Shown here: positions 4,135 to 64,000 of the stretch, piece after piece
Numbering within the stretch: position 1 is the stretch's first letter
Layout: the number at the start of each line of letters is the position of its first letter
Source of the DNA: a phage
Direction: 5' to 3' (one strand)
Sequence record: PZ445444.1
Length of the DNA stretch: 64,000 nt
Notes under the pieces: generated by a model
Databases searched by the model: none
Seen by the model: only the letters and a program-made list of their open reading frames with translations
What the model was told of the DNA's origin: nothing
Translations under genes and position numbers: made by a program

Positions 4135-4445
4135 TACTTGAAAATTTCTGGCATATCAAGTGTAAGGAGGATTTCTAAAATGGATTTCCTCCTTTTGATA
4201 TTTCACCGGGCTAGATATTTTAAAATTCTTAGAAAATCAGAAAATGGATCGAAAACTAAAATGGATTTTTCAGAGCAGGCACGACGAGATGAACCACTCA
4301 TCCTATCGTCTGCACCATATTCCAGACCACCATTACAGATTTCCCGCACATGCTCACATCCTTCTACTAGAACTTCCCCCACTTACCCTTGACCTTTTAT
4401 AGTAATAATCCAACCACTACCTTGAAGTTGTGGCGCAGCTTTCCA

Positions 4446-4640
4446 AGTACTCGATCTGTTTTTCGTTTCAAAGATTGAATTTTCTGAAAATTTTTCTCGA
4501 TAAATTTCTCAGTACTCGATCTGTTTTTCGTTTTCTGAATCGGATTTTCTGGAAATCGTTCCGGCTCTCGACCTGAAATTTTTGGGGACGAAATCGATTT
4601 TTCGTTTTCAGAAATGGATTTTTAAAATTTCTATATGGGA
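4446..4640. repeat. degenerate tandem direct repeats (about 65-bp unit, roughly 3 copies)
   Basis: CAGTACTCGATCTGTTTTTCGTTT occurs at 4446 and 4511; recurring TTTTCGTTTTC and GATTTTCTGGAAA-like motifs. Confidence 0.6.
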
Positions 4641-4950: not shown

Positions 4951-5157
4951 TTCGATAGGTATATTTTGCCACCTAGCGGGGCCGCTGTCAACACTTTTCA
5001 AAAAAAAAAAAAAATTTCTAACCTGATGCGCTGACCGCTGCAACCTGGCGGGGCCAGCCTGGCAGGGCCTAACTGACCAGGTAGGAGAGAATGAAGGCTT
5101 GCAAACCTGGTGGGCCTATGCTATAGGATAGATAACAATTGAAGAGGAGGTACAAAA

Positions 5158-6080: not shown

Positions 6081-6163
6081 AAATCATTGACACGCTGCAA
6101 AATTTAAGTAAACTAGACACAAAAGGCGGGAATGTTTCCCGCCAGCACAAAGGAAAAAAGATC

Positions 6164-6559
6164 ATGAATAAGAACGTACGCCGCATCATGAACGAACTGG
6201 CAAACGATGAAAAAATTATTGACATGCATTTAGTCAACATTTGCCGCCGTTGTGTAACATATAACAACCGCGCCGCAAAAGCGCGTGAGATGAACGCAAA
6301 AGGCACCTTAAAGCCCTTTCAGGTGGTTGTAAAATCTATAACCAGTGCAGCAGGCCAGGCGCATGACCACAACAACGGGAGCACTAATATTGATCCGTCT
6401 TACGTAATGAAACGGATCCGGACTTGCAAGAATAAAGAGCAGGTGTATAATGTCATAGACTGGTTGGACTCTATGGGCGATGTGGTTTACAATAGGTTTT
6501 CTGCAGCTATCGAGATCCAGCTTGACAGGTTGGACGGTAAAGTACTGAAAACTTACTAA
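6164..6559 (+). CDS. hypothetical protein
   Basis: in-frame ATG with AAAGGA RBS chosen over the track start at 6065; preceded by promoter-like sequence and leader hairpin 6125-6143. Confidence 0.55.
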   Translation: MNKNVRRIMNELANDEKIIDMHLVNICRRCVTYNNRAAKAREMNAKGTLKPFQVVVKSITSAAGQAHDHNNGSTNIDPSYVMKRIRTCKNKEQVYNVIDWLDSMGDVVYNRFSAAIEIQLDRLDGKVLKTY

Positions 6560-6565
6560 GATTAT

Positions 6566-6606
6566 TTTTAGATGGCCTTGACTTCAGGGCCATCAATAAA
6601 GTAAAC
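6566..6606 (+). repeat. conserved intergenic hairpin/promoter-like element, copy 1
   Basis: TTTTTAGATGGCCTTGACTTCAGGGCCATCAATAAAGTAAAC; 7-bp stem GATGGCC/GGCCATC with TTGAC in the loop. Confidence 0.6.
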
Positions 6607-6759
6607 TAATCCCAGTTAAGCGAAAAAGGAGGCTTGAAGATGAGCACTACACGCCAACACACAAAGGTAACGATTATCGTTTGCATCATTGGTTACATCC
6701 TGGCGCAAATGTTGATGGGTAGCGCCAATGATTTCGCAAAATTTTTCTTAGACTTTTAA

Positions 6760-6839: not shown

Positions 6840-7190
6840 ATGAATACTTCCATCACTATGACCGCCGAAGAAAAAGCCCTGCAGATCGCCGCTCTGAAAA
6901 AACAGATTGCAGAACTTGAAGACAAGATCGACAATTTTGAAATCGACGAAGACAAGTACGACGATAAATATGATGAATGGTTAGACGAGATCTACGGCGA
7001 AATCATGATCGGAAACATTTCTTTTCTTCCGTCGCGTATCCTCAAGGAGCTAGATCCTATCGCTTACCGCTGCGGATTTAGCGACTACATCGACAGCCTG
7101 GATATTGAGGACGATGAAGAATACCAGGAATTACAGACAGAGCTCGAAGAAGTGAAAGAAGAGCTTGCAGAACTGGAAGAAAACGAGTAA
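6840..7190 (+). CDS. hypothetical acidic coiled-coil protein
   Basis: 116-aa ORF, AGGAGA RBS; D/E-rich. Confidence 0.6.
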   Translation: MNTSITMTAEEKALQIAALKKQIAELEDKIDNFEIDEDKYDDKYDEWLDEIYGEIMIGNISFLPSRILKELDPIAYRCGFSDYIDSLDIEDDEEYQELQTELEEVKEELAELEENE

Positions 7191-7195
7191 ATTTA

Positions 7196-7237
7196 TTTTT
7201 AGATGGCCTTGACCCCAGGGCCATCAATAAAGTAAAC
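7196..7237 (+). repeat. conserved intergenic hairpin/promoter-like element, copy 2
   Basis: near-identical to 6566-6606 (one or two substitutions in the loop). Confidence 0.6.
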
Positions 7238-7279
7238 TTTAGACTGTTAACACTTAACCAATACAGAGGAGTTAAAACC

Positions 7280-7525
7280 ATGGCAGCACTAATCACCAAA
7301 TATTATGCCCCTACCAACACCAAAAGCGCCCGTATCATGGTAAAAGGCTTCGGACGTAAAAAGGTGTACACCTGGGATTATGCCTTAGACACGGAAGACA
7401 ACTACACCAACGCAATGACCGATTTTATTAATGAACTAAATAAGCAGATCTTGACAAGTTATAAAGTGACCGATATTGCTTATATAGGTGAAGGCGGGAT
7501 CTGTTTTGTAGGCATTGTGAAATAG
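7280..7525 (+). CDS. hypothetical protein
   Basis: 81-aa ORF, GAGGAG RBS. Confidence 0.55.
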   Translation: MAALITKYYAPTNTKSARIMVKGFGRKKVYTWDYALDTEDNYTNAMTDFINELNKQILTSYKVTDIAYIGEGGICFVGIVK

Positions 7526-7575
7526 TTATTTTTTCGGTGGTCCTGGTTGCAGGGCCATCTATAAAGATAATTTAT
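7525..7575 (+). repeat. diverged variant of the intergenic hairpin element
   Basis: TTATTTTTTCGGTGGTCCTGGTTGCAGGGCCATCTATAAAG, same arrangement with a substituted stem. Confidence 0.4.
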
Positions 7576-8716: not shown

Positions 8717-9340
8717 ATGACCACCGTTAACATTACCACAGGTTACAATTTATCTTTCGACGTGCTGACCGACGAACAAAAAGAAAAAGCTATTGAAATG
8801 GTCCGCGAAAGAGAAGAACACAGCGGGGATAATTTTTTTGCAGAAAGTGTAATTGAACACTATAAAGAATATGTCTTTCCAGAGTACGGCCTTGAAGATA
8901 CCGAAGTACGTTGGTCCGGCTTTTGGTGTCAAGGCGATGGCGCGTCAATCAGTGCTGAAAACGTGGATTTAGAAAAATTCTTGCGTAAAGTAAAGGCCCT
9001 GACCAAGTTCCGATCAATTCGTCACTTGTTCGGCACAATGCACGATGGCGAGTTATCAGCCAGTGTTGAACGTATCCCGTTTAGCCATTATCATCACGAA
9101 AACACAATAGGAGGGTGCATCGATACTAATTGGCTAGACCTGACCACCAAGCAAGAGGACAAAGTTGAAGAGCTGGAAGAGCTGATCACCGAGACGGTAC
9201 GGGAGCTATCCCGCAAGGTTTACGTAGACCTGGAGGAGGCCTATCTTGAACAGTTTACTACCGAAAACCTGATCGGCCTTATTGAAGCCAATGATTGGCG
9301 GTTTGATGTGGATGAATATGGGGAGATGAGTTTTTCATAA
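8717..9340 (+). CDS. hypothetical acidic protein
   Basis: 207-aa ORF, AGGAGA RBS. Confidence 0.65.
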   Translation: MTTVNITTGYNLSFDVLTDEQKEKAIEMVREREEHSGDNFFAESVIEHYKEYVFPEYGLEDTEVRWSGFWCQGDGASISAENVDLEKFLRKVKALTKFRSIRHLFGTMHDGELSASVERIPFSHYHHENTIGGCIDTNWLDLTTKQEDKVEELEELITETVRELSRKVYVDLEEAYLEQFTTENLIGLIEANDWRFDVDEYGEMSFS

Positions 9341-10588: not shown

Positions 10589-10630
10589 CGGCCCCGATCC
10601 CTGGGGCCTAACTTTTCAAATTTTTTTCTC
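10589..10630 (+). terminator. rho-independent terminator
   Basis: GGCCCCGATCCCTGGGGCC hairpin followed by a T-rich tract. Confidence 0.55.
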
Positions 10631-10725
10631 CCTGAGTGTTGCAATCCGATCCAGAATATGGATAATAACAATCAACGGGGAGACACTCCCCACCGCATAG
10701 ACAAAGTTCCAAAAGGAGAAACAAA

Positions 10726-10927
10726 ATGAGCAACAATATCCGCGTTATTAACTTCAAAAAAGAAGAAAAAAATTGCCGTGCTGATTGACGGTCAAGAAAT
10801 CTTTAAAGGTGATTATGAAGATCATCAAACGGCGATTAGTATCACTCGCGTGATTGGTTACCATAATTTTTACCCTCAAGGCGCTGAGGCAGCAGTAAAA
10901 CGAATTAAAGAGATTGTAGGCCTGTAA
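10726..10927 (+). pseudogene. small ORF interrupted by a +1 frame break at an A7 tract (possible slippage site or homopolymer error)
   Basis: ATG with AAGGAGA RBS; frame 0 stops after 20 codons; removing one A from GAAAAAAATTG gives a continuous 65-codon ORF ending at 10927. Confidence 0.4.
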
Positions 10928-10934
10928 AATTTAT

Positions 10935-10975
10935 TTTTAGATGGCCTTGACTCCAGGGCCATCAATAAAGTAAAT
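10935..10975 (+). repeat. conserved intergenic hairpin/promoter-like element, copy 3
   Basis: TTTTTAGATGGCCTTGACTCCAGGGCCATCAATAAAGTAAA. Confidence 0.6.
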
Positions 10976-11018
10976 TTAAACCCTGTTAAAATAATCAGTG
11001 CAAAAAGGAGTAATGATC

Positions 11019-11318
11019 ATGTTTATCCAGGCTAATAATCTTTATTTCTTTGATGGTCAGATCGTAGACGGCGTGGAGGTGGAAATCACCGGGTGCCCTG
11101 GCGGTCAGGTTATGACTTTTCGGAATAATGCCTTTGATGATTCTCATATCGTTATGAGAATGGAAGTTAGTAAGCTGGATGACAAGAAAACACTCATTGA
11201 TTATTCCGTGAAAGATCATCCAGACTACCACATGATCTATGGTGATTTGTGCATTGTTGACCGTGACAAGGTGGGCGGCATTGTGATCGCTATTGTGAAC
11301 GATGTTTTCTCAAACTAA
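11019..11318 (+). CDS. hypothetical protein
   Basis: 99 aa from ATG 8 nt after AAGGAG. Confidence 0.55.
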   Translation: MFIQANNLYFFDGQIVDGVEVEITGCPGGQVMTFRNNAFDDSHIVMRMEVSKLDDKKTLIDYSVKDHPDYHMIYGDLCIVDRDKVGGIVIAIVNDVFSN

Positions 11319-11756: not shown

Positions 11757-11891
11757 GCGTTACAGCGGCCCCCAAGGCGCTTAAAAAAATTTTTAAAGAA
11801 GTACTTGCATCAAGTCCTACAATATGGATAATAAAGGGTGTCGGGGGGGTGAGGCCTCCAATCATTAACCGGATAGATAGGAGTTAAAACC

Positions 11892-32867: not shown

Positions 32868-33341
32868 TTAGTCAACCTGAACCCAACCATCTGCTACCTT
32901 TTTAAACATTCTTTGGTTATCACTGCCTCTAAAGGGTTTTTTGGTGGGGTTATCTTTTTCGTACTTACCGTCCATAATGTAATCAACACTATCTTTAATG
33001 TAATCGGGGACTTCTTCAAACAAATACCCTGTGTACACCCAGATAGTTTTTGTGTTGCCGAAGCGTTCACGGATAGCGCAAATGATTGAATACATACCAT
33101 CAATATTGTAAGGCGCTAAAGGCTCTCCACCGCATAATGTAACGCCGGTAATATGGTTTGGTTCTATAGAGCTAAGTATGCTCTCGATTGTGTCATTTGT
33201 TAACGGTTCCCCTTTAGCGGGTGACCAAACACTTTTGTTTTGGCAACCAACGCAGTGATGTGGACAACCAGAACAGAACACCGTTGTCCTAATGCCTGGG
33301 CCGTCAACCATACTACACTCTATAATATTAACAACATTCAT
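32868..33341 (-). CDS. nrdG: anaerobic ribonucleotide reductase activating protein (radical SAM)
   Basis: 157 aa; N-terminal Cys cluster CSGCPHHCVGC and GGEP motif. Confidence 0.8.
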   Translation of the reverse strand: MNVVNIIECSMVDGPGIRTTVFCSGCPHHCVGCQNKSVWSPAKGEPLTNDTIESILSSIEPNHITGVTLCGGEPLAPYNIDGMYSIICAIRERFGNTKTIWVYTGYLFEEVPDYIKDSVDYIMDGKYEKDNPTKKPFRGSDNQRMFKKVADGWVQVD

Positions 33342-33573
33342 TCCTTATCCTCTTTGAGGTAGGGATATTCAGGCCACAATAAGCTCGATCTAAGAAAACA
33401 GCTTCTTCCCCTCTGGAATCGGTAGATCTATAATACCCATCACCATGGTAACTAACGAACCAGTAGCACCCATCATCGCTTTCCACTGTTGTGGCTCTGT
33501 CCGAATGAAAGATAATTTCGTAATCCTTACCGAGTGTAAACCATCTGTTAGCTTTTACACAGACACCTATCAT
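33328..33573 (-). CDS. hypothetical protein
   Basis: 81-aa ORF. Confidence 0.45.
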   Translation of the reverse strand: MIGVCVKANRWFTLGKDYEIIFHSDRATTVESDDGCYWFVSYHGDGYYRSTDSRGEEAVFLDRAYCGLNIPTSKRIRNECC

Positions 33574-33724
33574 AAGTAACCTCTCTTCTGTGGTGCGCTT
33601 CTATTCAAGATAGACCTATAAAAGTCCATTTGATGAAGCCGTATAACTTTTTATACTTACACTTCAGTGCTAACAATTTTATCTTGATTTTCTTGATAGA
33701 TTTCCGCATTTCGACCCCTTATGC

Positions 33725-36164: not shown

Positions 36165-36976
36165 TGTGATGAATGGAGTCTGCTGTCTCCTCCCTGTGTT
36201 TCCACAGGGCCAGACTATCTCTTACTCTACTTCAATAAGATAATAACCCTTTATTGTGAGATGCTTACCTTCGGCATTTCCTTCGATAGCCCTATGAACG
36301 TTACCTACGTTCAAATTTAAGGCTTTTGCACAGGCATAGAGTGAAGGATATTCACCCACCAAGGTTTTCCCTTTGTATGCCTGCACTTTCCTATAGCACT
36401 TACCTGGACAAAGTCCTGTTCGGAAAGCATGTCTCTTATTATCTTCCGGCAAAACCCACTCTAGGTTAGACGGATGATCATTCAATGTATTGCCATCTTT
36501 ATGATTCACTTCCCAGTTTTCAGGGTCTTCTGGGACATCCGGCAAACAATACAAGGCAACAATCCTTGAGGTTTGGATTCGAATCTTTTTACCTTTGTGG
36601 TTGAAAGAGTACATATAACGGCGTTTAACATGCTTGTTACCTTTTCCATAACCTCCCCACAATATTGGGTGTAGCATTCCACGTTTTCCGTATACGTTTC
36701 CAACCTCATCAATCACATAGTTTGATTCTTCACCATTAAGAATGATCTTTTTCATAGAGCCTCTCCATTTCGAAGTTAGTATTTCAACTAACCCCTACAC
36801 TACTTGGTTCAGAAATGTTTGTCAAGCATCTCTGCCTTTCGTTAGTCGTTACAACCGTTCCAACTCCTGTAAGAACTAGTCACGGGATTGGCATAGCTTT
36901 CGCCTTAGCGTTCCCCGTTAGCCGGATTTACCGACCCCTCTTATGAGGTTAGGAGAGTTTTACAACGGCCAGTTTG
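36165..36976 (-). mobile_element. insertion splitting nrdD: probable group I intron carrying an HNH homing-endonuclease ORF
   Basis: about 810 bp between the two nrdD ORFs; flanks are non-AT-rich and non-coding. Confidence 0.5.
36222..36755 (-). CDS. HNH homing endonuclease
   Basis: 177 aa; HNH motif region NHKDGNTLNDHPSNLEW. Confidence 0.75.
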   Translation of the reverse strand: MKKIILNGEESNYVIDEVGNVYGKRGMLHPILWGGYGKGNKHVKRRYMYSFNHKGKKIRIQTSRIVALYCLPDVPEDPENWEVNHKDGNTLNDHPSNLEWVLPEDNKRHAFRTGLCPGKCYRKVQAYKGKTLVGEYPSLYACAKALNLNVGNVHRAIEGNAEGKHLTIKGYYLIEVE

Positions 36977-51447: not shown

Positions 51448-51918
51448 TCAATCCAGGGCAACACCGCCTGCCTTTTTAAACACCTCGATCAACTTCTCGA
51501 TCTTCTGTTCATGCTGACCATATCCAGCGCCGGGTAACGAAGCCCAGCGGGAACGGCATTTGCGGATAGCTTCGTGGATACGCCCTTCGTCAATGTCGGC
51601 GAGAGCCTTGCACTCACGGATCAGTTGCAACGCAATCTTGTCCTGACTGGCAGGGCCAAAATCTGGTAATCCTAACTGTTTCATGTAGTGTTTAGCAAAC
51701 TTCTCCAAAACCTGGTAACGACCAGCAGCGGAGGAGGTAAGTTTAGCATTTAGCTTAACGTAAACACCTGGATGCTTGCTGTAATCGCTGAACAGCTTGC
51801 CGCCGACTATGACATCGTACCCCCGATCCTTGGTAGGTTGTCTACCATTATCTGTTCCTTCCGAATATGCGATCATATCCAAGAAAGCTTTTCGTTGAAC
51901 ATTTTTATCAAGTTTCAT
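51448..51918 (-). CDS. lysozyme (lambda R-type lytic transglycosylase endolysin)
   Basis: 156 aa; QRKAFLDMIAYSEGTDNGRQ...GYDVIVGG...RWASLPGAGYGQHE closely parallels my recollection of lambda R. Confidence 0.85.
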   Translation of the reverse strand: MKLDKNVQRKAFLDMIAYSEGTDNGRQPTKDRGYDVIVGGKLFSDYSKHPGVYVKLNAKLTSSAAGRYQVLEKFAKHYMKQLGLPDFGPASQDKIALQLIRECKALADIDEGRIHEAIRKCRSRWASLPGAGYGQHEQKIEKLIEVFKKAGGVALD

Positions 51919-62375: not shown

Positions 62376-62659
62376 GAGTTGCCACACTGTTTATTGCGTG
62401 CTTGTTATTATGTGGGTGTGCAACCAGCGTTGAGAGAGAATACAAGATTGACCCTCCGGATGTAGGAAGGTTGATTGTTAAACCCCCAGAAGGTGCCATG
62501 AAACCACCTGCTAAAGCTATGCCTTTGAAGAAAGGTGCGCCAGATGCAGTGAATTCTGGCATTATGAGGGATAATAATCTGTCTTGTAGCAATGATAGAG
62601 CTAAATTGATCATTTTGCAAGACTATATTAGAACACTGTTTCCAAAGGAGAGAGGTTAA
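62372..62659 (+). CDS. putative o-spanin (Rz1-like lipoprotein)
   Basis: 95 aa; signal peptide with Cys-containing lipobox-like LLLCGC; proline-rich mature region; overlaps upstream stop by 4 nt. Confidence 0.55.
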   Translation: MRVATLFIACLLLCGCATSVEREYKIDPPDVGRLIVKPPEGAMKPPAKAMPLKKGAPDAVNSGIMRDNNLSCSNDRAKLIILQDYIRTLFPKERG

Positions 62660-63087
62660 TGTCTAAGATTTACGGACCGTGTTCTGAAAAGCAGAAGATG
62701 ATCCTCGAAAACGATGCAGATATCTTGGTAATCGGCGGTGCCGCAGGGTCTGGCAAGTCGTTCCTCTTGCAGTTGATGCCACTTAAAATTATTGATGACC
62801 CCCACAGCTCTGTGGTTATGTTCCGAAGAACAACCCCACAGTTGGAAGGTGAGGGTGGATTATGGCCTAAAGCAGTAGCTATTTATAGTGATCTGCCTGA
62901 AAACATTAAGCCAAAGTTTAGAGAGAAGGATCATAAGTTCATTTTTCCACGGTTTGATCCGAACACTGGCAAGTGGGATAGAAGCAAAAAGGGAGCTGTT
63001 GTAAAATACTGCCACATGGAGTATGTACAAGATAAGCTTAACCATCAGGGGCTTGAGTACACCATGGTTTGCTTCGATGAGGGTTAA
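62659..63087 (+). CDS. terminase large subunit, N-terminal ATPase part (exon 1 or split-gene fragment)
   Basis: 142 aa; Walker A VIGGAAGSGKSF, ORF ends right after Walker-B-like MVCFDEG. Confidence 0.65.
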   Translation: MSKIYGPCSEKQKMILENDADILVIGGAAGSGKSFLLQLMPLKIIDDPHSSVVMFRRTTPQLEGEGGLWPKAVAIYSDLPENIKPKFREKDHKFIFPRFDPNTGKWDRSKKGAVVKYCHMEYVQDKLNHQGLEYTMVCFDEG

Positions 63088-64000
63088 TTTGTAGCTCTCG
63101 TAAAACCTCCCTAATTGCGGGGAAATCTTTATTATTGACACCACCAACCTGTCATGGTAACATGACAGAGGCTTCGAAGAGAGATCGAAGGTATGGTAAC
63201 AGTGTGTTAATTTAGATAATCCGCAGCGAAGCATCCGAGAGGATGAACGTTCAACGACTAGTCGAAAGACGTAGAATCAAGCGATTCGAAACGGGAGGGT
63301 GAATGTGTAATACTAAAAAATGTATGGATTGCCAAAGAGTTCTACCTATTGATGATTTCTTTTTATCATCTAAGAGCAAGGATGGATACTCAGGTACATG
63401 CAAGGAATGCTATATGTACTACAGGAAGGGTGGATCTCGTAAAAACAAAAATATGGTTAAGAGAGATGATGCAGCATTGTTTATTCAAGACTTGCTGAAG
63501 AAAGGTGAACTTTTTGAATGCAAATCTTGTCATGAAAGTATGCTCGCTGATAGTTTTTACACAAAACGTGACTATGGTAAAGTATATCTGGTTACGAACA
63601 GGTGTAAGATGTGTGAAAAGTTTTATCAGATTGAGAAGAAATTTCACATAACAAAAGATGAATACTATCGTCTACTCTCAGATCAAGATCATAAGTGTGC
63701 CATTTGTAGAATATCCCTTGATGAGTATAGGACGCAAGGGTATAGAGATTTCTTTTGTGTTGATCATGACCATAAAACTGGTGCTGTAAGAGGGTTGCTT
63801 TGTGATAAATGCAACAGAGCTTTAGGTTTCTTCCAAGAGGATGAGGAAACTATTCTTAGAGCGGCAGAGTATTTACACATTCATAAGATATAGTCTGGTC
63901 TGCATGGAGACATGCAGCTGCCTGAAAATGGCGGGGCAAGACTAGCGACCTTGCCCGAACATAAACGACACAATTCGAATGGGAGCAGATAGACTACCTG
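63088..64000 (+). mobile_element. probable group I intron (partial, continues past window) with an Endo VII-type nuclease ORF
   Basis: 215-nt non-coding stretch after the truncated terminase ORF, then the nuclease ORF, then further non-coding sequence to the window end. Confidence 0.45.
63303..63893 (+). CDS. Endo VII-type (HNH-like) homing endonuclease with N-terminal zinc fingers
   Basis: 196 aa, GGGAGGG RBS; CMDCQ...CKEC and CKSC zinc-finger motifs; Endo VII signature VDHDHKTGAVRGLLCDKCN. Confidence 0.7.
   Translation: MCNTKKCMDCQRVLPIDDFFLSSKSKDGYSGTCKECYMYYRKGGSRKNKNMVKRDDAALFIQDLLKKGELFECKSCHESMLADSFYTKRDYGKVYLVTNRCKMCEKFYQIEKKFHITKDEYYRLLSDQDHKCAICRISLDEYRTQGYRDFFCVDHDHKTGAVRGLLCDKCNRALGFFQEDEETILRAAEYLHIHKI

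Follow-up and report, generated by a model that had tools for sequence, protein, structure and literature searches.

Does a small early phage gene that is broken in frame at a run of seven adenines use that run to make its protein, has it been inactivated by mutation, or has one base been misread? We examined this question in a 64,000-nt stretch of phage DNA (record PZ445444.1), the whole of which we call the window. Sequence comparison placed the window within the genome of a Vequintavirus, an rV5-like E. coli myophage: its positions 1-25000 share 96.7% identity with Escherichia phage nom (MN850646) and 94-95% with numerous others of the genus. The frame break sits within a rightward block of small genes in the first ~16 kb of the window, and gene order and flanking genes are the same as in the Vequintavirus relatives that bear the corresponding family, phrog_12347. 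The features of the locus are as follows.

10590..10608, + strand: GC-rich hairpin resembling a terminator, GGCCCCGATCCCTGGGGCC and then a T-rich tail (consensus scan and sequence)
10639..10666, + strand: sigma-70-like promoter candidate, TTGCAA, 16-nt spacer, GATAAT (consensus match only)
10713..10718, + strand: Shine-Dalgarno sequence AAGGAG, 7 nt before the ATG at 10726 (read from the sequence)
10726..10788, + strand: truncated ORF of 20 codons and a TGA (10786-10788), product MSNNIRVINFKKEEKNCRAD
10766..10772, + strand: A7 run, the site of a one-base expansion; A6 in relatives, A5 in three metagenome contigs
10773..10927, + strand: rest of the gene in the +1 frame, codons 16-66 (IAVLIDG...EIVGL) and a TAA (10925-10927)
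10927..10977, + strand: copy of a 51-nt intergenic repeat, placed immediately after the stop codon of the studied gene

A sequence-only reading of this DNA had described an ORF with a good ribosome-binding site that stops after 20 codons and, when one A is skipped, joins a downstream frame ending at 10927. All of this was borne out: AAGGAG (10713-10718) precedes the ATG by 7 nt, the ORF at 10726..10788 ends at TGA, and removal of one A gives a single 66-codon ORF with the product MSNNIRVINFKKEEKIAVLIDGQEIFKGDYEDHQTAISITRVIGYHNFYPQGAEAAVKRIKEIVGL. The downstream frame was correctly identified, but its length, given as 45 more codons, was not; it adds 46 codons beyond the first 20, or 51 past the shift point. 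The homopolymer is exactly A7, in the context GAAG-AAAAAAA-TTG, and the segment that holds it reads AACTTCAAAAAAGAAGAAAAAAATTGCCGTGCTGATTGA. The normal A6 run spans codons 14-16 (GAA-AAA-ATT). Codons 1-15 of the truncated ORF are the true N terminus of the 66-aa protein, while codons 16-20 (NCRAD) are out of frame. At the junction, the full-length form reads ...EEKIAVLIDGQEIFK and the truncated form ...EEKNCRAD. Gene callers report the +1-frame remainder as a 49-aa ORF that starts at a GTG (10778..10927).

The sequences around the gene suggest a transcription unit of its own. The hairpin at 10590..10608 probably ends the upstream unit, and the promoter candidate at 10639-10666 is preceded by a T-rich tract; its TTGCA..GATAAT arrangement recurs at ~11805-11832. 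The 51-nt element downstream of the gene is present in four copies in the first 25 kb (6558-6608, 7189-7239, 7523-7573, and 10927-10977; 69-96% identity). It contains a hairpin, GATGGCC...GGCCATC, located at 10940-10963 in the last copy. A promoter-like sequence, TTGACT..TAAATT (10947-10976), begins in the loop of this hairpin and is a candidate promoter for the next gene.

The two frames together encode a recognizable protein. The frame-corrected product matches phrog_12347 over profile positions 1-66 of 66 (E 1.6e-49), and since the match extends over its whole length, the juxtaposition of the two frames did not arise by chance. As the window product matches the full-length profile but is not encoded by one uninterrupted ORF, the window copy is a disrupted allele of this family. 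Using tblastn against 50,697 phage records, we found the fused protein in 119 records, all rV5-like. In 115 of these it is covered by one uninterrupted piece of at least 80% of the 66 aa; two of the remaining four are fragments at contig ends. Eighty records are at least 99% identical to the fused protein, and in 80 the uninterrupted ORF encodes a product 100% identical to it. The gene appears under the names rV5 ORF179 (ABI79244.1), nom_162, and naam_123, as a 66-aa hypothetical early protein.

Nucleotide differences point to clear purifying selection on the full-length frame. In the four fetched relatives that differ from the window, we counted 8, 5, 10, and 8 synonymous nucleotide differences in the fused frame and 0, 0, 0, and 1 non-synonymous codons. 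Three proteins were all that an exhaustive HMMER search of 1.84 billion representatives returned, which marks a narrow ORFan family with one remote relative. This relative (P0010, 64 aa) aligns gaplessly with residues 4-65, across the junction, at 31% identity (pairwise E 1e-12). At the matching site its gene reads GCT GGT AAG ATT, in frame and with no A run.

We also considered what each fragment of the protein might retain. An AlphaFold model (mean pLDDT 74) contains strands at residues 5-10, 15-20, and 23-29 and helices at 33-48 and 50-63. According to this model, the 20-aa peptide would retain the first strand only, and a possible 49-aa product from the GTG at 10778 would miss the first strand and part of the second. 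As the shift falls between strands 1 and 2, neither fragment would hold the whole fold. Searches of Pfam gave sub-threshold chance hits only (MHC_II_alpha and DUF7723, E 0.08-0.15). With Foldseek, no PDB or BFVD structure matched at E <= 0.001; the top-ranked ones were uncharacterized small phage proteins (E >= 0.018). The PHROG itself is a family without known function. To judge by its position, as a small gene with its own promoter candidate in a block of small genes, the gene may have an accessory role in host interaction.

The A7 allele is so far unique to the window. When we searched the 119 phage records with a 71-nt query centered on the run, none carried A7 at >=99% identity; the best records cover the query with 70 bases of their own, that is, A6. 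Direct reading gave A6 in every sequence but four: three contigs have A5, and in a deletion variant the tract is missing. Pattern scans for A5-A10 at the site recovered one IMG/VR contig and two JGI metagenome contigs, all A6. Searches of the GTDB bacterial contigs (one genome per species) gave no hit at all, and those of complete E. coli genomes no match. One protein (P0007, 49 aa), identical to the GTG call, was considered as a second A7 allele and rejected: of the four contigs that encode it, three have A5 and the fourth is masked with Ns at its 5′ end. Across the 401-nt neighborhood, the lone difference between the window and rV5_ev147, rV5_ev156, naam, and nom is the extra A. The identity of the surrounding sequence to that of four other phages indicates that the event is recent.

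Other lesions occur in homologous genes. These surfaced as truncated relatives in the protein search, and we then read their DNA. In each of three samples, an ENA metagenome contig (L009, L010, and L011) has A5 at the same tract; the three contigs do not differ from one another and may represent a single lineage. A second difference in A-run length is found in these contigs, whose spacer from the ribosome-binding site to the ATG is longer by one A (GAAACAAAAATG vs GAAACAAAATG). One C has been lost from a C run in L013, 10 bp are deleted in the phage isolate phiWec193, and in a Logan contig an in-frame deletion between short repeats has removed 45 bp.

As a control, we examined the neighboring 99-aa gene and found truncated variants in 2 of 12 protein clusters. 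Since the neighbor is also truncated, the lesion count of the 66-aa gene is not clearly exceptional, and we dropped the idea that it is an exceptionally lesion-prone gene. Lesions are commonplace in the small accessory early genes of this group, which raises the prior for a genuine mutation at the A run. Positions 1916-2217 of the original rV5 record (L003, DQ832317), which correspond to window positions 11019-11318, present the 99-aa neighbor as two genes, ORF178 and ORF177; the split involves two single-base insertions relative to the window. Another protein (P0021) is a 68-aa truncated form of the same neighbor.

Programmed slippage was one of two explanations offered by the sequence-only reading, the other being a sequencing error. 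Under this explanation, the A7 template would yield the full-length protein, through +1 ribosomal frameshifting on GAA-AAA-AAT or through slippage of RNA polymerase. The site has some of the right properties: a Lys-tRNA moving by +1 from AAA (10768-10770) onto the AAA that overlaps it would pair perfectly and restore the wild-type ...EEK-IAV, and A runs are shift-prone in E. coli, with -1 frameshifting of 25-60% reported at C-AAA-AAA in an over-expression vector (PMC1851650). However, a -1 shift, the direction documented for A6 runs, would here run into a TGA four codons on. In the zero frame, AAA is followed by AAT, neither a stop nor a hungry or rare codon, and the zero-frame TGA lies five codons further. 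The sequence just upstream, AAAAAAGAAG, contains no Shine-Dalgarno-like or GGAGG-like stimulator, only GAAGAA, and the downstream RNA fold is not significant (z = -1.44; 13 of 200 shuffles were as good). No homologue keeps the two-frame layout. Thus, neither a conserved shift site nor an A-site stop, slow codon, or stimulator was found for +1 ribosomal frameshifting. For transcriptional slippage, we took run-length thresholds of ~9 in many bacteria and, in E. coli, of >=7 T or >7 A from two sources (PMC1088944, PMC6260861). As described there, E. coli RNA polymerase bypasses indels only at runs of seven or more T, and A runs must be longer still (PMC6260861); selection against slippery runs, seen as genome-wide avoidance, is typically evident at 9 nt (PMC1088944). 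By the figures in PMC6260861, A7 is too short for slippage by the E. coli enzyme, and neither the run nor a two-ORF layout is conserved. A conserved recoding signal is excluded, since the A7 break is found in no relative and P0010 carries no A run there. With a break that is not conserved, no stimulator, and a run that is too short, programmed slippage is not supported; we regard it as extremely improbable, and rescue from an A7 template would reach at most trace levels. Replication slippage might instead make the tract a hypermutable on/off switch, a contingency locus at which subpopulations with A5, A6, and A7 toggle the gene. Three lengths do occur at the exact site, A5 in the three metagenome contigs, A6 in most sequences, and A7 in the window, and both out-of-frame lengths could revert by a single-base slip. 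Yet the ORF is uninterrupted in 115 of 119 phage records, the isolates read at the DNA level are all A6, and the A5 contigs may count as one lineage. The other lesions are irreversible deletions, pointing to plain loss. Known phase-variable tracts are longer than this six-base run, as exemplified by the polyG tracts of Campylobacter phages. A long hypermutable tract conserved across homologues, as expected of a contingency locus, was not found: the run is 6 nt and is absent from P0010. A switch is therefore very unlikely. We give similarly little credence to a combined version, in which a reversible switch silences the gene in hosts where its product is harmful, for example by triggering defense, while slippage of Lys-tRNA supplies residual protein.

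A misread base, with the phage truly A6, its 66-codon gene intact, and the seventh A an over-call or polishing error, is a more serious contender. Its appeal is that A7 is present in no other record or contig, that otherwise-identical copies read at the DNA level are all A6, and that the gene is under clear purifying selection. In addition, window-unique +1 changes in A runs are present on the same strand at 6154 and 11783. With the studied run at 10766, this makes three A(n) to A(n+1) changes on one strand among the five homopolymer differences that only the window shows in its first 25 kb, a pattern that could reflect a mild systematic over-call of A runs. We therefore looked at the rest of the window. 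Of 128 annotated nom proteins, 123 align with the window in one full-length tblastn piece. The five exceptions are a gene past the window end, an absent HNH gene, an interrupted terminase gene, a gene with a divergent C terminus, and the studied gene, which is the only one split between two frames; the other 127 show no frame split, despite about 45 coding runs of six identical bases in the window. Coding runs of at least seven number only two, the A7 and an intact T7 at 8833. When the first 25 kb were aligned across four genomes, short homopolymer indels unique to one genome numbered 5 in the window, no more than in nom (5), rV5_ev147 (5), or SophiaRose (10). With one frame-split gene among 128 and no excess of unique homopolymer indels, there is no general error signature, and we rejected systematic homopolymer error as a general property of the assembly, setting this single base aside. 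The two other A expansions, moreover, are noncoding, as expected for real neutral polymorphism filtered by selection, whereas random errors should fall mostly in coding sequence, which makes up roughly 78% of the window. One of them (6154, A5 to A6) lies between a ribosome-binding site and its ATG; the other (11783-11789, A6 to A7) lies in an A/T-rich tract upstream of a promoter-like CTTGCA..GATAAT. On balance, we hold a single sequencing error to be a plausible account, somewhat short of even odds and nearly as likely as a genuine mutation. The two explanations of the sequence-only reading thus fared differently: the sequencing error keeps a substantial probability, and programmed slippage is not supported, given the uniqueness of the break, a homologue without the A run, and the missing stimulator. 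A third, slightly more likely option had been omitted, a genuine replication-slippage frameshift in a dispensable gene.

Several further features of the window were also observed. The terL gene, uninterrupted in nom, stops in the window after codon 142 (62659..63087); these residues are 100% identical to residues 1-142 of nom TerL and match Pfam Terminase_6N. It is followed by a 196-aa ORF (63303..63893) with a match to Pfam Endonuclease_7 (E 2e-21), and at 62659-63893 the terminase gene thus seems to have been invaded by an intron or a homing endonuclease. The alignment with nom has gaps at ~51448-51542, 32985-33721, and 36223-36841. Nothing in the window corresponds to nom_81, an HNH endonuclease gene of nom, and two further gap segments could not be aligned; such gaps would fit mobile or variable cassettes. 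At 6855-7139, the counterpart of nom_172 (113 aa) aligns over residues 3-97 only, as its C terminus differs in the window. An intergenic A15 run at 5000-5014, by far the longest homopolymer of the window, corresponds to A6TT in nom. Finally, noncoding positions 4437-4622 contain three tandem copies of a ~47-57-nt unit, spaced 65-74 nt apart, with the core TACTCGATCTGTTTTTCGTTT.

Our preferred reading, to which we assign a probability of about 50%, is that A7 is a genuine and recent slipped-strand mutation that inactivates a dispensable accessory gene. The extra A would then lie in the phage DNA and not merely in the base calls, having been added to an A6 run, most likely by slipped-strand mispairing during replication of the phage DNA. 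Ribosomes loading at the strong ribosome-binding site would read ...EEK-NCRAD and halt at the TGA after 20 codons, which would make the allele essentially a knock-out. The full-length protein could then arise, at most in traces, when Lys-tRNA happens to slip by +1 on A-AAA-AAA, an event that would restore the exact wild-type sequence. We infer that the 66-aa protein is otherwise lost from the A7 allele. The independent lesions in other isolates and in metagenome contigs suggest that the 66-codon gene is dispensable, at least in culture. As the gene is otherwise strongly conserved, its loss might be costly in nature.

For annotation, the locus is best recorded as a frameshifted copy of the conserved 66-aa Vequintavirus protein, a pseudogene or possible sequencing error, rather than as a pair of small genes or a recoding site. 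Should the mutation prove real, it would argue weakly that the phage can grow in culture without this early gene, which could guide knock-outs of the many uncharacterized early genes in rV5-like phages. The allele opens no new mechanism.

Comparison with known systems places the locus as follows. Like programmed +1 frameshifting of the E. coli prfB type, it involves a +1 change and a shift codon that re-pairs perfectly, but the locus lacks a conserved shift site, a stop or slow A-site codon, and an upstream stimulator, and its homologues are in frame. With transcriptional slippage, as at the A9 run of Thermus thermophilus dnaX, the A9 runs of IS elements, and Shigella mxiE, it shares an A run and a continuation in another frame; however, its run is just 7 nt and not conserved. 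This run would be transcribed by the host polymerase from sigma-70-type promoter candidates, and longer A runs are needed according to the lengths given for that enzyme (PMC6260861, PMC1088944). The window product without one A is identical to that of 80 records of the phrog_12347/rV5 ORF179 family and covers the whole PHROG profile, whereas no other member of the family shows the +1 insertion in the A run. The features of the locus, a one-base change of a run within a coding sequence, an early stop, and undecayed flanks, are those of homopolymer frameshift pseudogenes and "savior indel" alleles in phage and bacterial genomes; no feature sets the locus apart from this category, to which it belongs provided that the extra base is real.
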